The notes beneath the pieces were generated by a model that was given only the letters and a program-made list of their open reading frames with translations, was not told the DNA's origin and did no database searches. Below, piece by piece: positions 5,965 to 26,835 of a DNA stretch of 64,000 nt. Source of the DNA: a virus (lineage: Duplodnaviria; Heunggongvirae; Uroviricota; Caudoviricetes); the IMG/VR virus record IMGVR_UViG_2724679539_000005, positions 12,292 through 76,291 of that record. The stretch is one strand, 5' to 3'. Numbering within the stretch: position 1 is the stretch's first letter; each line of letters begins with the position of its first letter. The translations under genes were made by a program, and so were the position numbers.

Positions 5965-6507
5965 ATGTACCAGCTAAAGATAACCATCCGAGACAGCAAA
6001 CCACCTATATGGCGGCGTGTGCTGGTTCCAGAGCAAATCCCCTTTAGTAAACTTCATGCCGTGATCCAGTTAGCTTTTGGCTGGAATGACGAACACCTGT
6101 ATATGTTCGAGAAAGGGCGTAAAGGTGATCCAGGTAGCGAGTATCGCGTATGGGGTGAGGATGAAAGCATGGGTAACGCGGCAATCACGCCACTATGGGC
6201 GGCGCTCCAGAATGAGGGTGACAAGCTGGTTTACACGTATGACTTTGGCGACTGGTGGGATTGCGTCATTGTGCTGGAGAAGCAAACACACGATACGAGT
6301 AATCAGCCCATTAGCTGCCTGCGTGGGAAAGGCACCACCCCGGCGGAAAACTCAGGCGGCTTGCATGGTTACAATGAATTGCTATTACAGGCCAGAGAGT
6401 CTGATAATCCTGAGCAGGCCGAGATCCACAATTTCCTGATGCTGGATATTGAACGCCGGGTTTACGACCTGAGCCGCATCAACGACAGATTGCAGGCTAT
6501 TAACTGA
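5965..6507 (+). CDS. pRiA4b ORF-3-like family protein (180 aa)
   Basis: N-terminal pattern IxIT(I)RDSKPPIWRR..VP..F..LH..IQ.AFGW...HLY.F recalled as the PF07929-like family. Confidence 0.5.
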   Translation: MYQLKITIRDSKPPIWRRVLVPEQIPFSKLHAVIQLAFGWNDEHLYMFEKGRKGDPGSEYRVWGEDESMGNAAITPLWAALQNEGDKLVYTYDFGDWWDCVIVLEKQTHDTSNQPISCLRGKGTTPAENSGGLHGYNELLLQARESDNPEQAEIHNFLMLDIERRVYDLSRINDRLQAIN

Positions 6508-6859
6508 CCCGCATGTATTCACCTGATATTGCGTTATCAGCGCCGCCAGTATCGCGCATAACAGCACAATGACCGGGTAAACCGTAACGCACGACCGTTG
6601 CGTTAGTCTCACCGCCGCGCCGTATCTGGCGCGATTCATACACTGTCACCCGCTCAAGCAGTCCACCAGCAACCATGCTTTCCAGTGTGCGCCGGGTTGA
6701 TTCGAGCTGGTGACGCTTATCGAACGACACCATGCCATGAAGCAGGTAGGCCACACCCGACACATCGAACGGCGGCGCACCAATCTCACCAGTCACCCAT
6801 TCGAGGTTATCCGGTTCAAAGTAGCTAAGTATCTCTTTTTTGCGGCTGGTCATTCTCAT
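6500..6859 (-). CDS. hypothetical protein (119 aa), possible winged-helix fold
   Basis: ORF convergent with the preceding gene, overlapping by 8 bp. Confidence 0.35.
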   Translation of the reverse strand: MRMTSRKKEILSYFEPDNLEWVTGEIGAPPFDVSGVAYLLHGMVSFDKRHQLESTRRTLESMVAGGLLERVTVYESRQIRRGGETNATVVRYGLPGHCAVMRDTGGADNAISGEYMRVS

Positions 6860-7060
6860 GGCTGGCTGATTCCTTATTGTGGGATAGCACTATCATACAA
6901 TAAGTGGGTTAAAGGGAGAGCGTTACCGCCTGATATGCTGTATGAATAACAACCAAATTTCAGGGGCGGAAAAAGATATGGGGGTACTTTTGGGGGTATC
7001 TATAAAAAATGAACAATAAAAAAGGCAACAAAAACAAAGCTTATCGCCTATGTGTATTGT

Positions 7061-7077
7061 TCCTATTATCGCACCAT
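7061..7077 (+). other. att core, copy 1 (thrW 3'-end-like TCCTATTATCGCACCAT), next to the integrase 3' end
   Basis: 17-nt match to the tRNA-Thr(CGU) 3' end as recalled; the same core recurs at 48847-48863 and 62056-62072, each followed by an AAATCAATAA-like flank. Confidence 0.6.
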
Positions 7078-7090
7078 CTAAATCAATAAG

Positions 7091-8251
7091 TTACCTCGCA
7101 TTTAAGTAAACTACGTTCTCCTCTTGTGCCGTATTTGTGCCATTGCGACTTATAATCGCATCGATTTTGCTCGCGTGCTCGGTGAGATGCCCAGCTGAAA
7201 GGTGGGCGTATCTTTGAACCATTTCGAGAGTTTCCCATCCTCCCATCTCTTTAAGTGCAAGAAGAGAGACACCGGACTGAACCAGCCAGCTTGCCCAGGT
7301 ATGCCTCAGGTCATGGAAGCGGAAGTTGCTAATGCCTGCCCGCTTTAACGCTCCCTTCCATGCCTTGTTGCTGTCGGTTCTCATCTTCCTTACCGCTGCT
7401 GTTTTTGTTCCGTCGCTTCGGTAGGCAGGTTTGGTGTGGACAAATACCCATCTCTTATGGAGCCCCTGCTGTTTTCTTAATATCTGGCATGCGGTTTCGT
7501 TAAGAGGAACTCCGATCGCATTGCCAGCTTTTGTTTCATCAGGGTGCATCCATGCCATTTTCTTATCCAGATCGACCTGTGACCACTCAAGGTCTGTAAC
7601 GTTGGAACGACGAAGGCCTGTCGTGATTGCAAACATGACCACAGGGAAGAAATGAGGAGCAATTTCTGCAAACAGGCGCTTCGATTCCTCCTCTGTAAGC
7701 CATCTGATTCGTCCATTCTTAACGCGTGGTGTTGATATTTTGGGCGCCCTGTCAAGCCATCCCCATTCAACAGCCATATTGAGAATAGCGCGAAGTATTG
7801 CCAGATGCCGCGTCTTCGTTCCTTTGCTTGCCAGCTTTGGTTTATACTCCGGCACTGGCTTGCCAAGCCGCAAACACCTATCCCGGCTCATCTCCCAGTT
7901 CAGGCGATGGCGGCGGTTTTCCATCCCGTCTACCGCCTCCATTATTTTTTCTGTTGTTATGTCAGAGAGAATGGTTTCTCTGAAGTGCAACATCCAGAAC
8001 GATATAATGCTCTTGTCATCATCAATGGACTTCTTATCCGATTTCTCACGCAGCCACCGTATGCAGGCTTCCTTGAATAGCTTTTTCGGTGATTCCCCGA
8101 GATTTTTTACTCTCCACGCTTCTGCTTTCAGACGATCGTGAAGTTCTTGCGCTTGCCTCTTGTCCGATGTTTCAAGAGAGCGTCTAACTCTTGATCCATC
8201 TGGCGCGACGAAATCGCAGTGCCATGTGCCACCGCGCAGTTTGATTGACAT
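7091..8251 (-). CDS. int: tyrosine integrase (P4/CP4-type)
   Basis: C-terminal catalytic region with [13 protein letters not shown] and the conserved Tyr region (VQRYAHL); 386 aa; adjacent to the att core. Confidence 0.9.
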   Translation of the reverse strand: MSIKLRGGTWHCDFVAPDGSRVRRSLETSDKRQAQELHDRLKAEAWRVKNLGESPKKLFKEACIRWLREKSDKKSIDDDKSIISFWMLHFRETILSDITTEKIMEAVDGMENRRHRLNWEMSRDRCLRLGKPVPEYKPKLASKGTKTRHLAILRAILNMAVEWGWLDRAPKISTPRVKNGRIRWLTEEESKRLFAEIAPHFFPVVMFAITTGLRRSNVTDLEWSQVDLDKKMAWMHPDETKAGNAIGVPLNETACQILRKQQGLHKRWVFVHTKPAYRSDGTKTAAVRKMRTDSNKAWKGALKRAGISNFRFHDLRHTWASWLVQSGVSLLALKEMGGWETLEMVQRYAHLSAGHLTEHASKIDAIISRNGTNTAQEENVVYLNAR

Positions 8252-8547
8252 GCTTTAACCTCCTGCACATCAACCGCATTCACCGCGCCATTGTGTCTCA
8301 CAGACTTAAGCGCCGCAATGCAGTCTGACTTGCAAATGCGATATGGGCTTTTAGGTTTATCTGGATTTATCTTTGCGGCTTGAAGTCGTCCACTTCGTAT
8401 CCACTGCGTGATAGTGCCTTTGTCTACCTTCAGATACGACGCAGCCTCTTCACGAGTGAAGATTTCTTCTTCCACTTGGAGTCTCCATTTATTGGATTGA
8501 CATGATTGCTGTAGGTCTGGATATCTTGAGAAGCTGGCAGGCCTCAT
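8128..8547 (-). CDS. xis: excisionase / AlpA-like HTH DNA-binding protein; 3' extent uncertain
   Basis: HTH segment (EEAASYLKVDKGTITQWIRSGRL); directly upstream of int and overlapping its start in another frame. Confidence 0.55.
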   Translation of the reverse strand: MRPASFSRYPDLQQSCQSNKWRLQVEEEIFTREEAASYLKVDKGTITQWIRSGRLQAAKINPDKPKSPYRICKSDCIAALKSVRHNGAVNAVDVQEVKACQSNCAVAHGTAISSRQMDQELDALLKHRTRGKRKNFTIV

Positions 8548-8822
8548 CGAGTGTGAGGCTGTATGATTCCATGGTTACCTCTGCTTTTTGAACGCATGTC
8601 ACGTAACTTCTTAATGTGTTCTGCCGTTTCGATCTCTTCTGCTATCCGATCTGCATCAGCTTTATTCACAGGTTCAAAGTCATGATTAAATCGGAACATG
8701 CTGGCGATACATGTTCTGCCTTTTCGGATGTAGTGAACTTTGTTGTGGGTAGAACGCAGGATTTTGCAGGGAGTGCCGTGGTGATCGACGTACCAGGTGT
8801 TAGGAAAAATGATTCTGAACAT
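8544..8822 (-). CDS. hypothetical early protein (92 aa)
   Basis: ORF in the early-left operon between xis and the TraR-like gene. Confidence 0.35.
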   Translation of the reverse strand: MFRIIFPNTWYVDHHGTPCKILRSTHNKVHYIRKGRTCIASMFRFNHDFEPVNKADADRIAEEIETAEHIKKLRDMRSKSRGNHGIIQPHTR

Positions 8823-8869
8823 TTTTACACCTCAGTTGGACGATGTTGAAATTTGCTGCTTTGAGGCCA

Positions 8870-9088
8870 TCACAGTCCCCATTGTTTGTTCTTAAGTTCG
8901 ATCTCCTCCTGGCAACTTGCACAAGTCCGACAACCCTGAACAGCCAGGCGTCTTCGCTCATCTATCGGATCGCCACACTCACAACAATGAGTTGCGGATA
9001 CAGTCTGGTAGTTCAGACGACGCATTTTTATTGCTGTATTGCGCTGTAATTCTTCGATTTCTGATGCTGAATCAATGATGTCTGCCAT
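8870..9088 (-). CDS. TraR/DksA-family C4 zinc-finger protein
   Basis: 72 aa with CxxC...CxxC (CCECGDPI...CRTCASC), typical of phage TraR-like proteins. Confidence 0.7.
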   Translation of the reverse strand: MADIIDSASEIEELQRNTAIKMRRLNYQTVSATHCCECGDPIDERRRLAVQGCRTCASCQEEIELKNKQWGL

Positions 9089-9186
9089 CTTCCATTAATC
9101 CCTGAATTGTTGGTTAATACGCTTGAGGATGAATGCGAACAATAAAAAAGGAGCCTGTAGCTCCCTGATGATTTTGCTTTTCATGT

Positions 9187-9405
9187 TCACCGTTCCTTAA
9201 AGAGGCCGTTTAACATGCCGATCGCCAGGCTTAAATGAGTCGGTGTGAATCCCATCAGCGTTACCGTTTCGCGGTGCTTCTTCAGTACGCTACGGCAAAT
9301 GTCATCGACGTTTTTATCCGGAAACTGCTGTCTGGCTTTTTTGATTTCAGAATTAGCCTGACGGGCAATACTGCGAAGGGCGTTTTCTTGCTGAGGTGTC
9401 ATTGA
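9187..9405 (-). CDS. hypothetical small early protein
   Basis: ORF trimmed to an internal Met; sits between the dam and TraR-like genes. Confidence 0.3.
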   Translation of the reverse strand, partial: SMTPQQENALRSIARQANSEIKKARQQFPDKNVDDICRSVLKKHRETVTLMGFTPTHLSLAIGMLNGLFKER

Positions 9406-9478
9406 ACAAGTCCCATGTCGGCAAGCATAAGCACACAGAATATGAAGCCCGCTGCCAGAAAAATGCATTCTGTGGTTG

Positions 9479-12027: not shown

Positions 12028-12438
12028 TTAGTGATTCAGGCCGTTACCGCGTCCGTCGAGAAAAACTTCCACGAGCAAATCACGGGTATAAGTGCGCTCG
12101 ATGCCGCGATGCAGATAAAGCCGTCCGCGTAAATTAGCTGATGCAGTCCAGGTACCATCTTTGTGTTTGACCAGCATTCCTGGCATGACCGCACCTCGAT
12201 TAACGGTCTGCGTTCCATAATGTTGATGAACCATAAAAACTCCTGCCCGTAAGCTGGGCTGCTGAACATATAGAGACTTCTGCGCGTATTCAGGCGGTGG
12301 ATGGCCGCCGGTTGTCATAACTAAGCCGCCTCGTTGAAGCGACTGAGGTATGAGGTGTTGAGTTGATTTCAGCTGGTCACACCGACGTTCACGCGTCCGT
12401 TTCACCCCTCGCACTCCCCGGAGCCTGCCGAAATTCAA
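12028..12438 (-). CDS. hypothetical early-left protein with Arg-rich N-terminus (possible N-like antiterminator or Kil-position gene)
   Basis: First ORF downstream of the putative OL/PL; N-terminal [10 protein letters not shown] motif resembles an arginine-rich RNA-binding motif. Assignment not established. Confidence 0.3.
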
Positions 12439-12877: not shown

Positions 12878-13924
12878 TCAGTTATCCTTTAATAACCTAT
12901 ACAGTTTTGTAGGGGTACATCCTGAGGATATTGTTAAGTTCGTAGCACGCCTTTTCCGCCCACCATCGTATAAACGAAAACCAGTAGTAGACGAATTTTC
13001 TGCGTCAAAAACTATAGACAGTATAACGTCCCCAGACTTTTTTTGCCATTCATATGTGCCGTTAGTTGGTTTTGTCATCTGTAGACGCCAGTCAAGAACG
13101 CCATCACTTATAGCTGAGAGATCGTTTAGTACGTCTAGTACGGATTGATATCTTTCATTTGGATCTACATGAATGCATTTGTTTACTATTGTTATCAATT
13201 TTTTATGTATGTGGGAAGGATACTCTTTTAATGGATAGGAGCCATTAATTATCGACTCTCTGAGTTGTTCAATCGTTCTAAATGCAGATCTTTCTCTTTC
13301 AAAATTATCATATCCAACACACATTCTATATATGGTTAATCCTGCCTGATATATGTCATATGTGAAATTATAATCATTTGTTGATAAAGAAAAATATTCC
13401 GGTGGCACATGAAAATGATATCCAAACTCAGGCGCAGCTCTCGATTCCTCATTGACTAACTGAGACAATCCAAAGTCAGATAGCATGGCCTCATTTCTGT
13501 TTGATATCATGATGTTATTAGGTTTTATATCAAAATGCATAAGACCTTTTGAGTGTATATGATAAAGCCCACTTAAAAATTGAATAGAATACCGTATTAT
13601 CTCCCTGCTCGTAAGATTAATCTTTTTTATTAATTGGTTTAGCGAACCATTATGATAAAATGGCATGGCTATATAGATATTGCTCTCACATTGAGCAGCA
13701 TACTGAACTTGCACAATATTTGGATGTGCATGTTTATAGAGAAGCCTTGCTTCATTAAAGTAGTCGTCGTGGTTAGTGTTTTCTTTTTTTTCTATTTCTT
13801 TAATCACCAAGTCATGAGCTAGGTGTCTGTCATGAGCCAGATATACTTTTGAAAAACAACCCTGTTCTTCTAGATCACGAATCCATTCGAATGCTACATC
13901 AGCTCTTTTGTATGGAGTCAGCAT
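12878..13924 (-). CDS. eukaryotic-like Ser/Thr protein kinase (348 aa)
   Basis: Kinase motifs: VIK (beta3 Lys), HFDIKPNN (catalytic loop), DFG, PPE; very AT-rich. Confidence 0.85.
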   Translation of the reverse strand: MLTPYKRADVAFEWIRDLEEQGCFSKVYLAHDRHLAHDLVIKEIEKKENTNHDDYFNEARLLYKHAHPNIVQVQYAAQCESNIYIAMPFYHNGSLNQLIKKINLTSREIIRYSIQFLSGLYHIHSKGLMHFDIKPNNIMISNRNEAMLSDFGLSQLVNEESRAAPEFGYHFHVPPEYFSLSTNDYNFTYDIYQAGLTIYRMCVGYDNFERERSAFRTIEQLRESIINGSYPLKEYPSHIHKKLITIVNKCIHVDPNERYQSVLDVLNDLSAISDGVLDWRLQMTKPTNGTYEWQKKSGDVILSIVFDAENSSTTGFRLYDGGRKRRATNLTISSGCTPTKLYRLLKDN

Positions 13925-14379
13925 CCCCTTACCTCCGCAGATAGTGCAGCCAAAACAGCTTCATTTGTTTCAGTTGTAAAACCAGAATTATCGATTCCAT
14001 TTATATTACGGTGTGACTTCAATATTTCTTTATACTCGATCTCTGTTAGGTTCAATGATGACTTCATACCAGATTTTCTAATGGTGTAATATCTTCTTAC
14101 ATCACTGCTTGAAAATGCTTCTTGAATAACAGCTTCTATATAAAGGCGGTCAATGCTAAGATTATCAGAGTTTGATTCAGTAACGCGTATAGCAGCTAAT
14201 TCAACATTATATAAATTAAGAATGTCGAGGATGTTATTTCGCACATACTTTAATTTTTCTGGTGTGTCTAAGGTCGAAGGTATTTTAATAACATCAACAC
14301 ATTTGAGTGCAGACTCATCAGTGCAATATACAACAAAAGATGTAACTTTGGGCGCCGCCCTAACACCTAGTATTCTCAT
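13918..14379 (-). CDS. hypothetical protein (153 aa) co-transcribed upstream of the kinase; N-terminus resembles a RuvC/YqgF-like RNase H fold with the catalytic Asp replaced
   Basis: MRILGVRAAPKVTSFVV resembles the RuvC N-terminus (ILGIDPG..TG); overlaps the kinase start by 7 nt. Confidence 0.5.
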   Translation of the reverse strand: MRILGVRAAPKVTSFVVYCTDESALKCVDVIKIPSTLDTPEKLKYVRNNILDILNLYNVELAAIRVTESNSDNLSIDRLYIEAVIQEAFSSSDVRRYYTIRKSGMKSSLNLTEIEYKEILKSHRNINGIDNSGFTTETNEAVLAALSAEVRGC

Positions 14380-16146: not shown

Positions 16147-17076
16147 ATGGCAAACACTGCTGAGATATTCAATTTTCCAGTGCCGGATGTGGCACAAAAG
16201 GAGCCGCGCGTGGCAGATCTTGATGATGGTTATACGCGCATTGCTAATGAGTTGCTGGAAGCTGTGATGCTGGCGGGATTAACACAGCACCAGCTTCTGG
16301 TCTTCCTGGCTGTCATGCGCAAAACATATGGCTTTAATAAAAAACTGGATTGGGTGAGCAACGAGCAACTTTCCGAATTGACCGGGATATTGCCGCACAA
16401 GTGTTCTGCTGCAAAAAGTGTTCTGGTAAAGCGTGGGATTTTAATTCAGAGCGGGCGGAATATCGGCATTAATAATGTGGTCAGTGAATGGTCAACATTA
16501 CCCGAATCAGGTAAGAAAAATAAAGTTTACCTGAAAGAGGTAAATTTACCTGAATCAGGTAAGAAAAGTTTACCCAAATCAGGTAAAGGCGTTTACCCGA
16601 ATCAGGTAAACACAAAAGACAAACTAACAAAAGAAAATATAAAACCTTTTTCGTCCGAGAATTCTGGCGAATCCTCTGACCAGCCAGAAAACGACTTTCC
16701 TTTGGAGAAACTGGATGCTGCAATTCAGAGCGGCAGCAAGTGGGGGACAGCAGAAGACCTGACCGCCGCAGAGTGGATGTTTGACATGGTGAAGACCATC
16801 GCGCCCTCAGCCAGAAAACCGAATTTTGCAGGGTGGGCTAACGATATCCGCCTGATGCGTGAACGTGACGGACGTAACCACCGCGACATGTGCGTGCTGT
16901 TCCGCTGGGCATGCCAGGACAACTTCTGGTCCGGTAACGTGCTGAGTCCGGCCAAACTCCGCGACAAGTGGACCCAACTCGAAATCAACCGTAACAAGCA
17001 ACAGGCTGGCGTGACAACCGGAAAATCAAAACTCGACCTGACAAACACTGACTGGATTTACGGGGTGGATTTATGA
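16147..17076 (+). CDS. O: replication initiator O (lambda O-like)
   Basis: N-terminal ...RVADLDDGYTRIAN...RKTYGFNK... resembles lambda O; iterons lie inside the gene. Track ORF begins at 16057; Met at 16147 is the likely start. Confidence 0.85.
   Translation: MANTAEIFNFPVPDVAQKEPRVADLDDGYTRIANELLEAVMLAGLTQHQLLVFLAVMRKTYGFNKKLDWVSNEQLSELTGILPHKCSAAKSVLVKRGILIQSGRNIGINNVVSEWSTLPESGKKNKVYLKEVNLPESGKKSLPKSGKGVYPNQVNTKDKLTKENIKPFSSENSGESSDQPENDFPLEKLDAAIQSGSKWGTAEDLTAAEWMFDMVKTIAPSARKPNFAGWANDIRLMRERDGRNHRDMCVLFRWACQDNFWSGNVLSPAKLRDKWTQLEINRNKQQAGVTTGKSKLDLTNTDWIYGVDL
16498..16610. repeat. origin iterons inside the O gene (4-5 copies of about 19 bp, TTTACCCGAATCAGGTAAA-like)
   Basis: Direct repeats TTACCCGAATCAGGTAAG / TTTACCTGAATCAGGTAAG / TTTACCCAAATCAGGTAAA / TTTACCCGAATCAGGTAAA. 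Confidence 0.8.
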
Positions 17077-17774
17077 AAAACATCGCCGCACAGATGGTTA
17101 ACTTTGACCGTGAGCAGATGCGCCGGATCGCCAACAACATGCCGGAACAGTACGACGAAAAGCCGCAGGTACAGCAGGTAGCGCAGATCATCAACGGTGT
17201 GTTCAGCCAGTTACTGGCAACTTTCCCGGCGAGCCTGGCTAATCGTGACCAGAACGAACTGAACGAAATCCGCCGCCAGTGGGTTCTGGCTTTCCGGGAA
17301 AACGGGATCACCACGATGGAACAGGTTAACGCAGGAATGCGCGTAGCCCGTCGGCAGAATCGACCATTCCTGCCATCACCCGGGCAGTTTGTTGCCTGGT
17401 GCCGGGAAGAAGCATCCGTTACCGCCGGGCTGCCAAACGCCAGCGAGCTGGTTGATATGGTTTACGAGTATTGCCGGAAACGTGGCCTGTATCCAGATGC
17501 AGAGTCTTATCCGTGGAAATCAAACGCGCACTACTGGCTGGTTACCAACCTGTATCAGAACATGCGGGCCAATGCGCTGACTGATGCGGAATTACGGCGC
17601 AAGGCTGCCGATGAACTGGCCTGTATGACAGCGCGAATTAACCGTGGTGAGGCGATACCTGAACCAGTAAAACAACTTCCTGTCATGGGCGGGAGACCGC
17701 TTAATCGTGTTCAGGCTCTGGCGAAGATCGCAGAAATCAAAGCGAAGTTTGGGCTGAAAGGAGCAAGTGTATGA
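17073..17774 (+). CDS. P: replication protein P (DnaB helicase loader)
   Basis: 233 aa, near-identical to lambda P as recalled (MKNIAAQMVNFDREQMRRIANNMPEQYDEKPQ...). Confidence 0.95.
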   Translation: MKNIAAQMVNFDREQMRRIANNMPEQYDEKPQVQQVAQIINGVFSQLLATFPASLANRDQNELNEIRRQWVLAFRENGITTMEQVNAGMRVARRQNRPFLPSPGQFVAWCREEASVTAGLPNASELVDMVYEYCRKRGLYPDAESYPWKSNAHYWLVTNLYQNMRANALTDAELRRKAADELACMTARINRGEAIPEPVKQLPVMGGRPLNRVQALAKIAEIKAKFGLKGASV

Positions 17775-18058
17775 CGGGCAAAGAGGCAATTATTCATTAC
17801 CTGGGGACTCATAAGAACTTCTGTGCGCAGGACGTTGCCGCGGTAACAGGCGCAACCGTAACCAGCATAAATCAGGCTGCGGCTAAAATGGCGCGGTCAG
17901 GAATCCTGGTCGTTGATGGTAAGGTCTGGCGAACGGTGTATTACCGGTTCGCTACCAGAGAAGAACGGGAAGGAAAGGTGAGCACGAATCTGATTTTTAA
18001 GGAGTGTCGTCAAAGTGCCGCGATGAAGCGGGTGTTGGCTTTATATGGAAGAGAGTAG
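17771..18058 (+). CDS. ren: Ren protein
   Basis: 95 aa, MTGKEAIIHYLGTH... close to lambda Ren as recalled; start overlaps the P stop. Confidence 0.9.
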   Translation: MTGKEAIIHYLGTHKNFCAQDVAAVTGATVTSINQAAAKMARSGILVVDGKVWRTVYYRFATREEREGKVSTNLIFKECRQSAAMKRVLALYGRE

Positions 18059-18122
18059 GTATGAGCAATTATTGTTACTAATTTTAGTTTTACGACATTC
18101 GTGATAACTAAATAATTGATGT

Positions 18123-18377
18123 GTGGAACTGAATTATAAAGGGGATGATGTTTTGGGAAATAAAGAAAATATCGATTGTAAGCACACAAGAAGCTCATGC
18201 TATAAAAACAAGCAGATGAAAGATGTTATTTATATTACATTGCCTAAACTCACTGAAGAAGAAGTAGAAATTTTTAAGGGACCAATGCATAAAGCATTGC
18301 TTGCAGGGATAAATGTTACAAAAAAGGCAGTTTCTGATGCCCTGCTAAACAAAGGGATAAAAGTTGAATTTAAATAG
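18123..18377 (+). CDS. hypothetical protein (84 aa), AT-rich, convergent with the 472-aa gene
   Basis: ORF with Lys-rich composition; no family recognised. Confidence 0.35.
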   Translation: MELNYKGDDVLGNKENIDCKHTRSSCYKNKQMKDVIYITLPKLTEEEVEIFKGPMHKALLAGINVTKKAVSDALLNKGIKVEFK

Positions 18378-18428
18378 AGTAATTCAGTGGCAACAATAGC
18401 ACTCATTTGTGAGTGCTATTGAAATTTA

Positions 18429-19847
18429 TTAGAAAATAATGTTTGCTATATCCGAGATAGCATTTAAAGAACCTCTGTGGTCACTTCCTGTTTTAGGTAA
18501 AATATAGGAATATCGAGGGTCTTCATTATATGTTAACTTCCAGTGTTTTCCATCGCTTGACGCACTGAAACCTAAGTCCTTTAAATTTCTTTGTGTTGCG
18601 CTATCCATGCTTCTGTAACCTGTTAAAGTCCTTTTAAGTAATTGGCGGCGACTCTCGGTTTCTTTATTGTATTCATTATTGGCAATTAGGGATGATAAGA
18701 TATGGTAGCTTCTACCAAATTCATTTTTATTTTTTATGGCAGTTTTTAGCGCGTCAATAATTATATTTTTGATTTCTCCATCAAAAAAATCAGTCTCTTC
18801 ACCAGCATTAAGCACAATGCTTCCTTGGGCTGAAGCTTGTGATTGAAGAGTGCGTACTCTGTGCTCTAAAGAGGAGATCTTATGCTTAAGATCTTCTATT
18901 TGGTCATCTTTCGCAACATTATCGGCTTCGTAAAGCGCCATCAGTTCGCGTGTGTATTCTCCTCTTTCTTTGAGTGAGTTAATAGAGTCTTTCGTTTTTC
19001 TGGTTTGTATCTCACTCCATCCACTATCTGAGACAGGAGCCATTGTAGTCGTAGCTCTTACAACATCATCAAATAACTCATCTTCAAATTCTTTTGCGGT
19101 TTTCTCACCACGGCGATAAAAACTGATATTTTGACCCCGTGGCCAATAGATACCAACAGCACCAGCATAGGCATTTTTAGCATTTGTCTCATTTTTTAGC
19201 TTAATAGAAAATAGTCTATTGCTAGGCTCAATTAATACATGTGCTAATCCGCATACCTTTCTTGCAAGGCGTTCTGGGATGATATTGTGAGCATGTTCAT
19301 TAAAAAAATACTTGGAGCTAACGTATATTATTGGTAGTCTGTTGTCAGTTTCACCATTTATAACTTTAGCTGCTATATTTAAATGTTCATCAGTATCATC
19401 TAAGGAATGAGGTTCGACTGACACCTTGAAAATATCATCAAGACCACCAGAAAATTTATCAATCAATCTCATAACAACTAATGGTTTCTTAGGTTGCGGG
19501 GCTAGATAAGCTGCATCTTGGCTTACAACGCTAGATTCCACCTGAATCCACATGGTATCAGTTTTGAGATTTTTATTAATTGAAATATCTGTTACCCATT
19601 TGTGTGGCTCAGATATTTTCGAATACCTAAAACAGCCTAAACTAGTATCTTTGTTTTTATAAGTTATTATATCAATTCTTTCATTTTTAGACTCTATGAA
19701 GTACTCCTCGCTTTTATAATCACATACTAATTGTGCTGGAATAAAAGTTGTATGTGGTGAGTCGTTTACCCAAGAAAAACATTCATTAAAGATCTCAGCT
19801 AGAGATGTGGAGTTTGAAACATAAAAACCAGTTGAGAAATATTTCAT
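18429..19847 (-). CDS. uncharacterised 472-aa protein (nin-region moron on the antisense strand)
   Basis: Long clean ORF, strongly AT-rich, opposite to the phage early-right operon; coiled-coil segment (EDLKHKISSLEHRVRTLQ); no family recognised. Confidence 0.7.
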   Translation of the reverse strand: MKYFSTGFYVSNSTSLAEIFNECFSWVNDSPHTTFIPAQLVCDYKSEEYFIESKNERIDIITYKNKDTSLGCFRYSKISEPHKWVTDISINKNLKTDTMWIQVESSVVSQDAAYLAPQPKKPLVVMRLIDKFSGGLDDIFKVSVEPHSLDDTDEHLNIAAKVINGETDNRLPIIYVSSKYFFNEHAHNIIPERLARKVCGLAHVLIEPSNRLFSIKLKNETNAKNAYAGAVGIYWPRGQNISFYRRGEKTAKEFEDELFDDVVRATTTMAPVSDSGWSEIQTRKTKDSINSLKERGEYTRELMALYEADNVAKDDQIEDLKHKISSLEHRVRTLQSQASAQGSIVLNAGEETDFFDGEIKNIIIDALKTAIKNKNEFGRSYHILSSLIANNEYNKETESRRQLLKRTLTGYRSMDSATQRNLKDLGFSASSDGKHWKLTYNEDPRYSYILPKTGSDHRGSLNAISDIANIIF

Positions 19848-19950
19848 GAAATTTCCTTATTAAAAATGAGATTAATCTCATTGGCTATGATAATTGTTAC
19901 CCTCCTTTGGATCTAGTGTTCATTTGACATAAGAACCTATTGATTCATCA

Positions 19951-20092
19951 TAATCAACTCGCCATAATCATGTCATCGGAGCCTAAAAAACTCCGGTGAC
20001 TTCTGCGCTAAACGGGGACGTTTATGCGCACACACAATCCAAACTCTCATCTCCATTCACAGATGCAGAAATGCACCTACGATTTTTTACAT
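19951..20092. repeat. about 140-bp direct repeat, copy 1 (about 90% identical to 21885-22027)
   Basis: Shared sequence ...GCCATAATCATG...CTCCGGTGACTTCTGCGCTAAACGGGGACGTTTATGCGCAC...GATGCAGA(A/G)ATGCACCT(A/G)CGATTTTTT. Confidence 0.8.
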
Positions 20093-20507
20093 TCGGTGTT
20101 TTACTTCGACAGCCAGAATTGGGAGTCTCTATTCGTCTGGCGGCTAAAGGTGATATGGAAATCGTTATGTTTTGGCCTGAGGTAGTTGTAACTGTTGTAG
20201 CAGCTATGGCTGTGATCATCATGGTGTCCATTTACTGGGGTTGACGACATGATTTATCCGGCGCTATATTCTGTGCGTTGCCGCAAAATCGGCACACGGG
20301 ATTGGCGTCCCGGGATACTACTCAACGCATACCGCGTTAAGCGGTTTTTTTGTGCGCTAAGCACGGCTATGCCCAAATTATGGTGGGCTGTGTGAGGGCT
20401 TCTTCGGAAGCGCCGGGTTTGAGTAGCCGGTTACGCCAACCTTACACAGTTCACCACCAGTCGATTGGCGTCGTTGGTGGTGATGGTTAACCTGATGAGG
20501 TGATACT

Positions 20508-21116
20508 ATGACTACTCAATTAGCATTCCACAAAACGACGTTTACCCCGATTTGCCACAATAACAGAATTTGGCTTACTGCCACTGAAGTTGGTTTAGCA
20601 CTGGAATATGCGGACGATAAAGCAGTTCAGCGCATTTACTCTCGGCACTCAGATGAATTCACAGATATGATGACAAGGGTGGTCAAAGTGACCACCCCTC
20701 GTGGAATGCAGGAGTCTCGAGTATTTAGCCTTCGCGGAGCCCATTTGATCGCCATGTTTGCTCGTACTCCTGTGGCCAAAGAATTCCGCCGCTGGGTTCT
20801 GGATATTCTCGATCGAGAAGTTCAACAATCCCCAATCACAAAACAATTCACTGATAACGAACTTTGCACACTCGCCTGGTTATGGCGAGCAAGTGATACG
20901 ATGTTAACCGCCTGCCAGAACGTTACGCCCCTTCTTCAGGTCGCAGAGCATCGCGAAGCAGGTAGATTCACTTCAATCGAACAAGAATATCCTCGGATAC
21001 TCAACAGGGCGCGAGAAATCCTTGCCAGAGAAACGGCGCATGTAAAATTCCAACCGTGGCAGGATGATAAGTGGAGTCGTGTGTTACCATATTTCCGTCA
21101 GAATCTGTTGCAATAA
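20508..21116 (+). CDS. Bro-N / KilA-N-like domain protein (antirepressor/Roi-like)
   Basis: N-terminal pattern IWLTATEVGLALEY...RVFSLRGAHLIAMFARTPVAKEFRRWVLD typical of Bro-N family DNA-binding proteins. Confidence 0.55.
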   Translation: MTTQLAFHKTTFTPICHNNRIWLTATEVGLALEYADDKAVQRIYSRHSDEFTDMMTRVVKVTTPRGMQESRVFSLRGAHLIAMFARTPVAKEFRRWVLDILDREVQQSPITKQFTDNELCTLAWLWRASDTMLTACQNVTPLLQVAEHREAGRFTSIEQEYPRILNRAREILARETAHVKFQPWQDDKWSRVLPYFRQNLLQ

Positions 21117-21351
21117 AGTCACTAGTTAGAAATACTGCCAGCATTCTGCGATGACGGAAGTGCTGGCATTTTTTTTGGTAATGTGCGAGTCCATTTCATA
21201 AAATACGGGTACTGGAACTGGACGATATAATCTAAAAGATACCATTATCAGTAGCATTAAAATCGCTATGTGCCGATACGGATATAAATTATATTGATTG
21301 TTCACATACCTTATTGGATATTACTGAGGGGTGTTTATATAAGGTGTAACG

Positions 21352-21861
21352 ATGATGTGGAACTTTGACAGTGCCGACTTAAGTGCAATAGCAGCAGGCA
21401 TTTCTGCGTTTGGCACATTAGCCGCAGCGGGGTCGGCGCTTGCAAGTTGGTACACGTCAAAAAAAGCGCTGCAGCTACAAAATAGAGTTTACCTTTATGA
21501 GTCTTTAAAGGCTTGCGCTGAGAGAGCCAATTCATCAGCTAAAGATAAGCGCGGATCTGAATGGAGCGTTAATGATGCAGCGGATATCATCAGGTGCCTA
21601 GTACGGGCGATGGAGATCATCAAGCAGGATAGCCAGCAGAAAGAAGGTAATCAGGCATTAATGTTGAAACAGTACTTTGTTAATCTGCTAATAATGGAAC
21701 TGTACGAGGAAGTTCATAACGGTGATGCGGCTGATTCTGTTTTTAAAAGTACGGAACCTACACAAGTACTTGATAACTTATGGAGCAAATGGCAGGAGGC
21801 TATAGCTTTTTTTGATATTTGGAATTACCCAGTTGCGACTGAGGAAGACTTGGCAGACTAA
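21352..21861 (+). CDS. hypothetical protein (169 aa) with N-terminal transmembrane helix
   Basis: Hydrophobic N-terminus (LSAIAAGISAFGTLAAAGSALASW); AT-rich; inside the repeat-bounded cassette. Confidence 0.45.
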   Translation: MMWNFDSADLSAIAAGISAFGTLAAAGSALASWYTSKKALQLQNRVYLYESLKACAERANSSAKDKRGSEWSVNDAADIIRCLVRAMEIIKQDSQQKEGNQALMLKQYFVNLLIMELYEEVHNGDAADSVFKSTEPTQVLDNLWSKWQEAIAFFDIWNYPVATEEDLAD

Positions 21862-21884
21862 TTTTCAGCACATTTGATTTCCAA

Positions 21885-22027
21885 TAATCAACCAGCCATA
21901 ATCATGCCATTGGAGCTTGAACAACTCCGGTGACTTCTGCGCTAAACGGGGACGTTTATGCGCACATACAATCCAAACTCTCTTCTCCCTTCACAGATGC
22001 AGAGATGCACCTGCGATTTTTTGCATC
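21885..22027. repeat. about 140-bp direct repeat, copy 2, immediately upstream of ybcN
   Basis: See copy 1. Confidence 0.8.
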
Positions 22028-22055
22028 CAGCGTTTGACCTCTGCGGAGGTGAAGC

Positions 22056-22511
22056 GTGAACCTCCCACAAGACGGCATCAAATTGCATCGTGGTAACTTC
22101 ACTGCTATCGGTCAGCAGATCCAGCCTTATCTGGAGGAAGGCAAATGCTTTCGCATGGTGCTTAAACCGTGGCGTGAGAAACGCAGTCTTTCCCAGAATG
22201 CACTCAGCCACATGTGGTACAGCGAAATCAGTGAATACCTCATCAGCAGGGGTAAAACGTTCGCCACTCCAGCTTGGGTAAAAGATGCTCTCAAACACAC
22301 ATATCTCGGTTATGAAACCAAAGACCTGGTTGATGTCGTAACCGGTGAGATCACCACTATCCAGTCGTTACGCCATACCTCCGATCTTGATACCGGAGAG
22401 ATGTATATCTTCCTGTGTAAGGTTGAAGCCTGGGCGGTGAATATTGGCTGCCACCTGACTATTCCGCAGAGCTGCGAGTTCCAGCTGCTCCGCGACAAGC
22501 AGGAGGCGTAA
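22056..22511 (+). CDS. ybcN: YbcN-like nin-region protein
   Basis: 151 aa, GTG start preceded by GGAGG; [21 protein letters not shown] motif; matches DLP12 YbcN as recalled. Confidence 0.75.
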
Positions 22512-22681
22512 TGGCTACACCGCTTATTCGTGTCATGAACGGACACATCTACAGAGTATCAAATCGTCGTAAGCGTAAACCTGAGCTGAAGCCATCCGAA
22601 ATACCAACTCTGCTCGGATATACCGCCAGCCTGGTTGATAAAAAATGGTTGCGACTGGCAGCAAGGAGGAATCATGGCTGA
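22511..22681 (+). CDS. ninE: NinE-like protein (56 aa)
   Basis: Small basic ORF (RRKRKP...YTASLVDKKWLR) in the ninE position; below the track cutoff. Confidence 0.55.
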   Translation: MATPLIRVMNGHIYRVSNRRKRKPELKPSEIPTLLGYTASLVDKKWLRLAARRNHG

Positions 22682-22964
22682 TTTGAGAAAAGCAGCGCGT
22701 GGTCGGGAATGCCAGGTAAGAATCCCTGGCGTATGTAATGGCAATTCTGAAACGTCTGTACTGGCACATATCCGGCTGGCTGGATTGTGCGGTACCGGTA
22801 TCAAACCGCCAGACCTGATTGCCACCATCGCATGTTCTGCCTGTCACGACGAAATCGACCGCCGCACACATTTTGTCGATGCTGAGTATGCAAAAGAATG
22901 CGCGCTGGAAGGTATGGCGAGAACACAGGTTATCTGGCTGAAAGAGGGGGTTATTAAGGCGTGA
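22674..22964 (+). CDS. ybcO: YbcO-like (DUF1364) putative nuclease
   Basis: Cys-rich motif ([20 protein letters not shown]...CSACHDEID); AAGGAGG RBS 7 nt upstream of the ATG at 22674. Confidence 0.7.
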
Positions 22965-23323
22965 ATACCTACAGCATCACATTACCCTGGCCTCCGAGCA
23001 ATAATCGCTATTACCGCCATAATCGCGGGCGCACGCACGTCAGCGCAGAGGGGCAGGCATACCGCGATAACGTCGCCCGAATCATTAAAAACGCAATGCT
23101 GGATATCGGCCTGGCTATGCCTGTGAAAATCCGTATTGAGTGCCACATGCCGGATCGCCGTCGCCGTGACCTGGATAATCTGCAAAAAGCCGCTTTTGAC
23201 GCACTCACCAAAGCAGGTTTCTGGCTGGATGATGTTCAGGTCGTTGATTACCGTGTTGTGAAGATGCCCGTTACCAAAGGTGGGAAGCTGGAGCTGACCA
23301 TCACTGAACTGGGGAATGAATGA
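22961..23323 (+). CDS. rusA: RusA Holliday-junction resolvase
   Basis: 120 aa, [31 protein letters not shown]...; matches RusA as recalled. Confidence 0.9.
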
Positions 23324-23460
23324 TGTTTGAGTCTTATATGGCAGAACGTCTTCGCCACCGCTGGATGCGCCTGCGCTTATATCGTTTCCCCGGTTCTGTT
23401 TTGACCGATTACCGGATACTGAAGAATTATGCCAAAACCCTGACAGGAGCAGGAGTATGA
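23320..23460 (+). CDS. ylcG: YlcG-like small protein (46 aa)
   Basis: [46 protein letters not shown]; overlaps the rusA stop. Confidence 0.6.
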
Positions 23461-24794: not shown

Positions 24795-25754
24795 ATGATA
24801 AAAAAACCTGTGATTGGAATCAGCGGTTGTTTGGCCGGTTCTGCTGTTCGTTTTGATGGTGGTCACAAAAGAGCTGACTTTTTAATGGACAAATTAGTGG
24901 AATGGGTAACATTCAGACCAGTATGTCCAGAAATGGCTATAGGGCTGCCAGTTCCGCGTCCTGCTCTACGTCTTGTGCGCTCGACGCAAGGGAATATACG
25001 GATGTGTTTCAGCCACGACCAGAATGAGGATGTGACAGAGAGAATGACAGAGTTTAGTCGTTCTTATATGGACAAATTAAAGGATGTATCGGGATTTGTG
25101 GTTTGTGCTAAATCTCCCAGCTGTGGCATGGAGCGCGTGCGTGTCTATGATGAAAATGGTAATCGAGGTCGTAAAGATGGAGTGGGACTATTTACGAGCA
25201 CTTTGATGGAAAAGTTTTCCTGGCTACCGGTTGAAGAGGATGGGCGATTACATGATCCAGTGCTTCGTGAGAATTTTGTTGAAAGAGTTTTTGCTTTGCA
25301 TGAGCTCAATCACCTTTACAAGGAGAAATTATCAAGAAGAGAGTTATTAGCTTTTCATAGTCGTTATAAGCTTCAGTTGTTGGCGCATAGTCAGGCAGGC
25401 TATAAAGATATGGGACCATTTGTGGCTGCAATACACGAGTGGGCGGACCTTGAATCATACTTTGAGGTGTATCGTGATAAGCTGATGGCGATTCTCAGAA
25501 AACCTGCATCACGTAAAAATCACACGAATGTGCTGATGCATATACAGGGGTATTTTAGTAACTACTTAAGTACACGCCAGCGTAAAGAGTTGAGCGAGGT
25601 TATACTTAACTATCGTTCTGGCACATTACCTCTTCTTGCGCCGTTGACTCTGCTGAAGCATTATCTGGGTGAGTATCCTAATGATTACTTGCTTACACAG
25701 AATTACTTCGATCCCTATCCGGACGAACTGGCTCTAAGACTGATGGTAAATTAA
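24795..25754 (+). CDS. DUF523/DUF1722-like two-domain protein (319 aa)
   Basis: N-terminal GISGCLAG...FDGG pattern and overall size recalled as the DUF523-DUF1722 fusion family; not verified. Confidence 0.5.
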   Translation: MIKKPVIGISGCLAGSAVRFDGGHKRADFLMDKLVEWVTFRPVCPEMAIGLPVPRPALRLVRSTQGNIRMCFSHDQNEDVTERMTEFSRSYMDKLKDVSGFVVCAKSPSCGMERVRVYDENGNRGRKDGVGLFTSTLMEKFSWLPVEEDGRLHDPVLRENFVERVFALHELNHLYKEKLSRRELLAFHSRYKLQLLAHSQAGYKDMGPFVAAIHEWADLESYFEVYRDKLMAILRKPASRKNHTNVLMHIQGYFSNYLSTRQRKELSEVILNYRSGTLPLLAPLTLLKHYLGEYPNDYLLTQNYFDPYPDELALRLMVN

Positions 25755-26094
25755 TTGTATGCGATATCATCCAAAAGGATGAGTTCCTGCATGCAGGATA
25801 TTTACAATCGTAAAAACTACACTATGATACCCAGAGTGTCAGTTTGTATAAAAACTCTGTTTACGCTGAAGAAACCATTGAGATGCAACTTAAAGTTGGT
25901 AAACATGCCAGTCAAAATATAATATTATGATTCCACGCAGCTATATATAATATAACAGATTGGTTTAATAATTTGTCTTTGTGAGTTAAATACATAATTT
26001 TATACTTGTGATGCAATGAGATTTTCCTTATTGTTGAACTGGCGAATATTGATTTTCCACCTATACTTACCTGGTGTAACCTCAATGATATCAG

Positions 26095-26835
26095 GTGGAT
26101 AATATGCCATACATATGTTCTATCATTTTGGTGTTGAACTCGTTTGATGCCCGAATTGGTAAAGAAGATATTTTGTTTAAAAAGGGAAGTGCTGTTCTCA
26201 TTGATTACAATTTAAAAGATTTTTTTTCATCAAATATAGATCATGTAATGATCGTAGATGTTGAAGAGAAAACAGTTAATGATTTCTTTAAAAGCAACAC
26301 ACTCTCACCTTTTTCTGTAAGAAGGTTTTATCCGGCATACTTGATGGTGGAATGTGAAGATTTTTCATTGTTAAAGAACTTGATTGCATGCTTGAATTGT
26401 GATGGCAGAACTGTAGATTTTGTTAGAAATCAAATATCACTTGCATGTCTTGCTATCTTATCTTCAGAGAAAATAGTGCAAAGTTTTTTATTTGGATGTC
26501 TTAATAGTTTAGGAAGTAAAGTTAAGGCTATTATTCACACGGATATATCTGCAGCATGGAGACTTTGTGATATATCTTCAAGACTGTATCTGAGTGAAAG
26601 TCTGTTAAAAAGAAAATTAAAGCACGAAGGCTTATCATTTAGTAAGTTAATTCTTGAAGAGCGAATGGTGATGGCGGAAAGGTTATTAAGCTACAATTTA
26701 TATTCTGTTGGAAAAGTTGCTGAGATATGCGGTTATGGAAACACGTCATATTTTGTAAGTGTTTTCAGAAGATATTTTGGTGTTCCTCCCCATCAATATT
26801 CATCAAGATTTTTTTTAGAAAAAGACATGATGTAA
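26095..26835 (+). CDS. AraC-family transcriptional regulator (AppY/GadX-like)
   Basis: C-terminal AraC HTH (GYGNTSYFVSVFRRYFGVPPHQY); strongly AT-rich. Confidence 0.8.
   Translation: MDNMPYICSIILVLNSFDARIGKEDILFKKGSAVLIDYNLKDFFSSNIDHVMIVDVEEKTVNDFFKSNTLSPFSVRRFYPAYLMVECEDFSLLKNLIACLNCDGRTVDFVRNQISLACLAILSSEKIVQSFLFGCLNSLGSKVKAIIHTDISAAWRLCDISSRLYLSESLLKRKLKHEGLSFSKLILEERMVMAERLLSYNLYSVGKVAEICGYGNTSYFVSVFRRYFGVPPHQYSSRFFLEKDMM

Follow-up and report, generated by a model that had tools for sequence, protein, structure and literature searches.

A moron gene between ren and the nin genes of a lambdoid prophage encodes a near-identical copy of the single-protein defence system DS-10, with a predicted HicA-like C-terminus

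What is the function of a long open reading frame (ORF) that lies antisense to the early-right operon of a lambdoid prophage, between ren and the nin genes? The question is raised by a 64,000-nucleotide stretch of a Caudoviricetes record (IMG/VR IMGVR_UViG_2724679539_000005, positions 12,292 to 76,291; hereafter the window, meaning the whole stretch), in which a preliminary description made from sequence alone had proposed an uncharacterised 472-amino-acid (aa) moron with a lysogenic-conversion or superinfection-exclusion function. The clean antisense ORF is present as described (Table 1), and comparison with published sequence makes it close to certain that this gene is a DS-10 allele, DS-10 being a stand-alone protein for defence against phage reported in the DefensePredictor paper (Science 2026, PMC13092281; preprint January 2025). 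The link was made by searching the supplements of that paper for the first residues of the window protein; a search of the literature for the RefSeq accession gave no match. DS-10 (WP_087897267.1, working ID ZAPB) is given there as a one-gene unit of 472 aa and a 'predicted novel defense gene', originating from E. coli genome GCF_003334705.1 in the authors' strain collection (PMC13092281). The window protein is equal in length and identical at 395/399 residues (99.0%), 399 being the number of the 472 residues that are printed in the supplement; four substitutions (T62N, V124I, S133P and I215T) separate the two in the printed part. The DS-10 gene is already known and validated as a defence gene, no discovery claim is needed, and the label 'uncharacterised' has been outdated since the preprint and the Science paper.

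Published experiments back the defence or exclusion function that had been proposed, as this 99%-identical protein protects E. coli MG1655 against phage. The DS-10 gene was cloned alone, with its native promoter and on a low-copy plasmid, into that strain and was protective; in the screen, plating of Bas1 fell 10^5-fold (-log10 efficiency of plating = 5) and plaques of Bas3 and lambda were smaller, results that are marked as replicated (PMC13092281). DS-10 alone was both non-toxic and active (PMC13092281). The paper lists 'HicA mRNA interferase' among its newly validated defence domains; the authors' HHpred search assigned HicA (6HPB_C) to aa 416-471 of DS-10 with a probability of 0.91, and their HHblits comparison of DS-10 with known defence proteins scored <0 (PMC13092281). 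No later papers mentioning DS-10 were found in a literature search, and all the RefSeq copies of the gene that we examined are labelled 'hypothetical protein'.

Remote-homology searches and structure prediction, the check proposed in the preliminary description, divide the protein into START-like, thioredoxin-fold, coiled-coil, helical-bundle and HicA-like parts (Table 1) and reveal a relationship to the defence protein HEC-07. The AlphaFold model of the full protein has a pLDDT confidence score of 83, and that of the C-terminal aa 345-472 a score of 91. Invariant residues of the second domain comprise D137, P172, G200, A202, H203, E207, G229 and P236, and this thioredoxin-fold domain is, as modelled, redox-dead. 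Whole-protein searches of Pfam, NCBIfam and PDB sequences returned coiled-coil noise alone, around aa 280-340, where coiled-coil proteins are the sole Pfam and PDB sequence matches; together with the single long helix predicted there, these matches bear out the internal coiled coil noted earlier. Weak PADLOC LmuB matches in 2/42 family members were rejected as coiled-coil matches.

The C-terminus of DS-10 is HicA-like by fold and key residue in these models, and ribonuclease activity is only predicted from its sequence. Among Pfam families, HicA_toxin (PF07927) was the one matched by most C-terminal pieces, weakly and in 6/26 members (best E = 0.0042); the PF07927 gathering threshold was not reached, and the window protein itself had no match. 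The PADLOC HicA-like model matches 6/42 family members (best E = 2.6e-5), and PHROG 2053 is matched by aa 411-467 of the window protein. Aligned by hhalign to E. coli K-12 HicA (probability 70%, E = 4e-5), the family C-terminus places His435 on HicA His23, which we take to be the catalytic residue of that toxin. Across the 262 full-length relatives collected, His435 is invariant (262/262), and conservation at G426, K437, D443, R445, D456, R458 and N462 stands at 94-99%. HicA toxins of HicAB type II modules (PF07927; PDB 5YRZ, 6G26, 6HPB and 1WHZ) have the same alpha-beta-beta-beta-alpha fold, which resembles a double-stranded-RNA-binding domain (dsRBD), the same G-x-H-x-K strand and a similar length of ~56 residues, whereas the DS-10 domain is fused behind a 410-residue N-terminal region. 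No HicB antitoxin gene is adjacent in the window or in the other genomic contexts examined. In the class descriptions of Gerdes 2024 (mBio, PMC10865869), fused HicA proteins of classes 11-14 are like DS-10 in being monocistronic, in carrying a HicA domain and in their proposed defence role, and the HicA domain of class 13 is also C-terminal; class 13 proteins are given as 340-440 aa with a mostly helical N-terminal region, and class 14 as a fusion to an SMC ATPase. Membership of class 13 (fused HicBA) or class 14 (SMC-HicA) was rejected on these descriptions (PMC10865869), which the START-like, thioredoxin-fold and coiled-coil N-terminus does not fit.

The rest of the protein is best compared with HEC-07 (PADLOC PDLC04158-04161), described as having AdoMetDC-like, CxxC-less thioredoxin-like and C-terminal RelE-family RNase parts and counted among seven candidates that lowered plaquing (Payne et al. 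2024, bioRxiv 10.1101/2024.01.29.577857). The window protein matches the PADLOC HEC-07 model (E = 1e-9; its aa 83-334 align with positions 107-366 of the 553 in the model), as do 42/42 aligned family members (best E = 1.9e-14). The HEC-07 query was the tested P. aeruginosa protein WP_033943166.1, the target.name in Table S2 of Payne et al., where WP_039244286.1 is the target.cluster, with its first 399 residues taken from that table; hhalign aligned the DS-10 family with it at a probability of 95% (E = 2e-8, aa 82-321 against 102-351). Motifs common to both are W-I-T-[DE], G-x-A-H-V and LK..G...EL..LYE.DN, the last at the start of the coiled coil. Both are single-protein defences; their homologous stretch begins at the first domain's end, takes in the thioredoxin fold without CxxC and reaches the coiled-coil start, and each has as its C-terminus an RNase fold of mRNA-interferase type in which one histidine is key. 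They differ in that HEC-07 has 549 codons and a RelE-family C-terminus, does not share E207 and P208 of DS-10, and was found embedded in Hma systems, whereas the DS-10 copy studied here lies in a prophage as a moron, with ren on one side and an Ant-like gene on the other. The match spans only ~47% of the HEC-07 model; with about half of the model covered, no RelE domain and no Hma embedding, DS-10 is not a member of HEC-07 as defined, and is clearly a relative. The hhalign and motif matches, read with the description of HEC-07, indicate that DS-10 has the front half of HEC-07 and another mRNA-interferase fold at its end, and the sequence comparison suggests one sensor scaffold with swapped RNase effectors behind the two. 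The term HEC-07 is absent from the main text of the DS-10 paper (PMC13092281), whose supplements were not searched for it.

How might such a protein act? We infer, with a probability of about 0.6 for the mechanism as a whole, that DS-10 is an autoinhibited RNase freed by a phage trigger. DS-10 would be made in the lysogen from its own predicted promoter and held inactive there, plausibly as a coiled-coil oligomer, with the helical bundle or the N-terminal half masking the HicA-like domain; the START-like/thioredoxin-like module would sense a product of the phage or some infection-induced change, and the freed HicA-like RNase would then cut RNA, stopping translation and with it phage production. 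In the AlphaFold C-terminal model, three helices (aa 358-408) are packed against the HicA-like domain, and the modelled bundle of aa 345-408 may be an in-cis inhibitor or a linker. The preliminary description had read the coiled coil as a hint of an oligomeric sensor or effector, an idea with which the modelled order agrees: globular domains at the N-terminus, then the coiled coil, then the HicA-like RNase domain at the C-terminus, as fits a sensor-effector fusion. By analogy, DS-10 would belong with fused toxin-sensors like CapRel: in CapRel(SJ46), as summarised in Gerdes 2024 (PMC10865869), one polypeptide includes a non-toxin domain that keeps the toxin inhibited and also detects a phage protein. 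The comparison is an analogy only, the CapRel(SJ46) toxin being a tRNA pyrophosphokinase and its folds being unrelated to those of DS-10.

Several points weigh against this mechanism. The mechanistic figure of the DS-10 paper (PMC13092281) deals with other systems, and its main text contains no DS-10 mutant or mechanism. Many unrelated systems in the DS-10 screen also restricted Bas1 (PMC13092281), so the Bas1 phenotype of DS-10 says little on specificity. Expression of DS-10 in the lysogen is predicted from a consensus promoter match. The densest invariant cluster lies in the thioredoxin-fold domain (D137, H203 and E207) and could itself be catalytic. The main rival explanation assigns the chemistry to a pocket formed there by D137, H203 and E207 and leaves the HicA-like domain as an RNA-binding, dsRBD-type sensor or anchor; it draws on domain 2 holding most of the invariant residues, on G-x-A-H-V being kept in HEC-07 too, and on the HicA fold being a double-stranded-RNA-binding fold, as Gerdes 2024 describes it (PMC10865869). 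However, E207 and P208 are missing from HEC-07, and a toxin-type RNase fold occupies the same position in both the DS-10 and the HEC-07 families, and we regard this alternative as unlikely.

The distribution of relatives bears on whether defence is the role of DS-10 at all. Family length is strikingly constant (460-480 aa) across Enterobacterales, Pseudomonas, Caulobacter and gut Firmicutes, with all members unannotated. A profile of the N-terminal 275 residues collects 1859 clusters at 50% identity (E <= 1e-3), 525 of them at E <= 1e-30, and with a family of hundreds of members the window ORF is far more than a chance ORF. Compared with one diverged copy, the DS-10 gene shows 8 non-synonymous and 22 synonymous changes and a ratio of non-synonymous to synonymous substitution rates (dN/dS) of 0.09, a value that indicates strong purifying selection. 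Gene neighbours differ across the four other genomic contexts examined. A 77%-identical homologue (P0004) adjoins the integrase of a mobile element that encodes a DUF927 primase (L004-L009, ~6275-9419). This element occurs at two chromosomal locations, one close to dsbD/cutA and the other to yqgA/speC, and the branch with P0004 is thus carried by a different mobile element. A Pseudomonas relative lies inside a Fic/HipA/BrnA toxin-antitoxin island, a Caulobacter relative lies beside uvrB, and elsewhere the gene stands among housekeeping genes. The DS-10 gene is solitary cargo with no antitoxin partner. HicA domains stem from toxin-antitoxin modules and Bas1 is sensitive to many constructs, so that DS-10 could be imagined as chiefly a module for selfish addiction or stabilisation, or as a prophage regulator, with the plaque phenotype as a side effect of plasmid expression. 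We consider this highly improbable: the phenotype was obtained from a low-copy plasmid with the native promoter and was replicated, the homologous HEC-07 defends too, relatives are found widely, as lone cargo genes, in a variety of mobile elements and islands, and a single fused polypeptide lacks the separate labile antitoxin that addiction requires.

Within the window, the DS-10 gene is a self-contained moron of a lambdoid prophage, with deviant GC content, opposite strand, a promoter-like site, a Shine-Dalgarno sequence, a hairpin and conserved phage genes on either side. GC is 0.32-0.41 at 18000-19900, against 0.50-0.56 in P/ren to the left (17000-18000) and 0.48-0.53 over 20000-23400 to the right, in agreement with the AT-richness reported earlier. 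To the left, the order is lambdoid (cI-like repressor, cro, YdaT-like gene, O, P and ren); to the right come a Bro-N/P22AR-C Ant-like gene (20508-21116), a phrog_1779 gene and then ybcN, ninE, DUF1364 and rusA. From this order, the placement between ren and the nin genes stands; ybcN, given earlier as a flanking gene, is not the immediate neighbour in the window, the Ant-like and phrog_1779 genes intervening. Related prophages (strain MB20) are without these two genes (202 aa and 169 aa; 20508-21861, plus strand), and there DS-10 is directly followed by ybcN. At the right edge of the inserted block, likeness to other lambdoid phages restarts at ~19930-19953. The block is present in 24/5426 complete E. 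coli genomes and the flanking DNA in ~2760; the INPHARED phage collection holds no copy of the DS-10 gene, only the flanking DNA being matched there. The hairpin between the convergent ORFs is likely, from its sequence, to be a bidirectional terminator; early-right transcription from ren would meet it, and read-through may therefore need antitermination.

Table 1 Features of the DS-10 gene, its predicted protein domains and the surrounding inserted block (window coordinates).
Feature	Position	Strand	Basis and remarks
DS-10 gene	18429..19847	-	472 aa plus stop, ATG start; ORF list; single-protein anti-phage system
Domain 1, ~aa 1-120	19488..19847	-	Predicted alpha+beta helix-grip fold, START/Bet v1-like; W26, S30 and P31 conserved
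Domain 2, ~aa 123-270	19038..19481	-	Predicted alpha/beta thioredoxin fold without CxxC
Coiled-coil helix, aa 277-337	18837..19019	-	One long helix in AlphaFold model; coiled-coil-only Pfam and PDB matches
Helical bundle, aa 345-408	18624..18815	-	Invariant E351, E358 and R379
HicA-like domain, aa 416-471	18435..18602	-	Predicted alpha-beta-beta-beta-alpha; invariant His435
AT-rich inserted block (moron)	18059..19930	.	Left edge is the ren stop codon (18058); GC profile
Promoter-like site of DS-10 gene (ATGACA, 18-nt spacer, TATGAT)	19947..19976	-	Consensus scan, 10/12 matches; predicted
Shine-Dalgarno AAGGA of DS-10 gene	19854..19858	-	6 nt ahead of ATG; read from sequence
Perfect hairpin between convergent ORFs, 12-bp stem, 4-nt loop	18394..18421	.	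Terminator scan and sequence
84-aa ORF, GTG start	18123..18377	+	ORF list; converges on DS-10 gene

The 84-aa plus-strand ORF does converge on the DS-10 gene, as had been noted; it does not hold up as a partner gene, its dN/dS values and its place outside the cloned active unit speaking against that role. The small ORF lies on the early-right strand directly after ren, and the two ORFs occur together in every copy of the ren-side moron, even where the small one is 86-92% identical. A two-part system could be read from this, in which a small early-right product switches DS-10 off on induction, as an antitoxin or for prophage self-immunity. We give this very little credence. DS-10 alone is non-toxic and active, and the small ORF, which was absent from the cloned active one-gene unit, is unneeded for defence. 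From 6-14 changes, its dN/dS comes out at 0.25-1.5 (DS-10 on the same contigs: 0.09), and it has an in-frame 12-nt indel. A set of 5.8 billion proteins contains just 4 clusters of it, every one >=86% identical and located in the same moron, with no homologue outside it; no copy was found in plasmids or beside the 77%-identical homologue P0004, the ORF is missing beside other family members, and the sequence offers no good ribosome-binding site at the annotated GTG. Searches of Pfam, PADLOC, PHROG and NCBIfam gave no match. This pattern suggests that it is probably not a constrained protein-coding gene and lies outside the defence unit. The label 'phospholipase D-like', carried by one RefSeq record of this ORF, was rejected, there being no family match and near-identical copies only.

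Elsewhere in the window, a second AT-rich moron (GC ~0.36; 12878-14379, minus strand) sits just downstream of the cI-like repressor, the position of rexAB in lambda. Its products include a Ser/Thr protein kinase of 348 aa (Pfam Pkinase, E = 1.2e-46; PADLOC PD-T4-6, E = 1.5e-36 over nearly the whole model; mad6, E = 8e-49), which resembles the Stk kinase of phage 933W, and the kinase gene is preceded, with a 7-nt overlap, by one for a 153-aa 'RuvC-like' protein (phrog_3875, E = 2e-90). This moron probably gives the same prophage a further defence system, and the window shows the native setting of DS-10 as a ren-side moron in a prophage with a second, defence-like kinase beside cI. At 24795-26835 (plus strand), a 319-aa 2-thiouracil desulfurase/DUF1722 protein is followed by an AraC-type regulator (GC 0.33-0.40), unusual cargo for that lambdoid region. 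A further AT-rich section at 50000-62000 (GC 0.35-0.43) has the appearance of a separate second phage-like element, or a satellite, that adjoins the lambdoid prophage; its genes include one of capsid-E type (56626-57663), one for a Dit-like tail protein (59819-60532) and one for an integrase (60614-61978, minus strand).

For defence biology, DS-10 is of value as a compact one-gene system in which an RNase fold of toxin-antitoxin type is apparently controlled in cis by a thioredoxin-fold module. Its homology to HEC-07 provides two natural chimeras, with the same front and a HicA or a RelE back, in which sensing and autoinhibition would be easy to test. On a wider view, to which we assign even odds, DS-10 and HEC-07 would both belong, as separate branches, to a single large and unnamed superfamily of one-protein defences, its START-like, redox-dead thioredoxin and coiled-coil scaffold serving as a portable sensor onto which HicA or RelE has been grafted. 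If true, the superfamily would form a natural effector-swap series, suited to finding what the thioredoxin-fold module senses.
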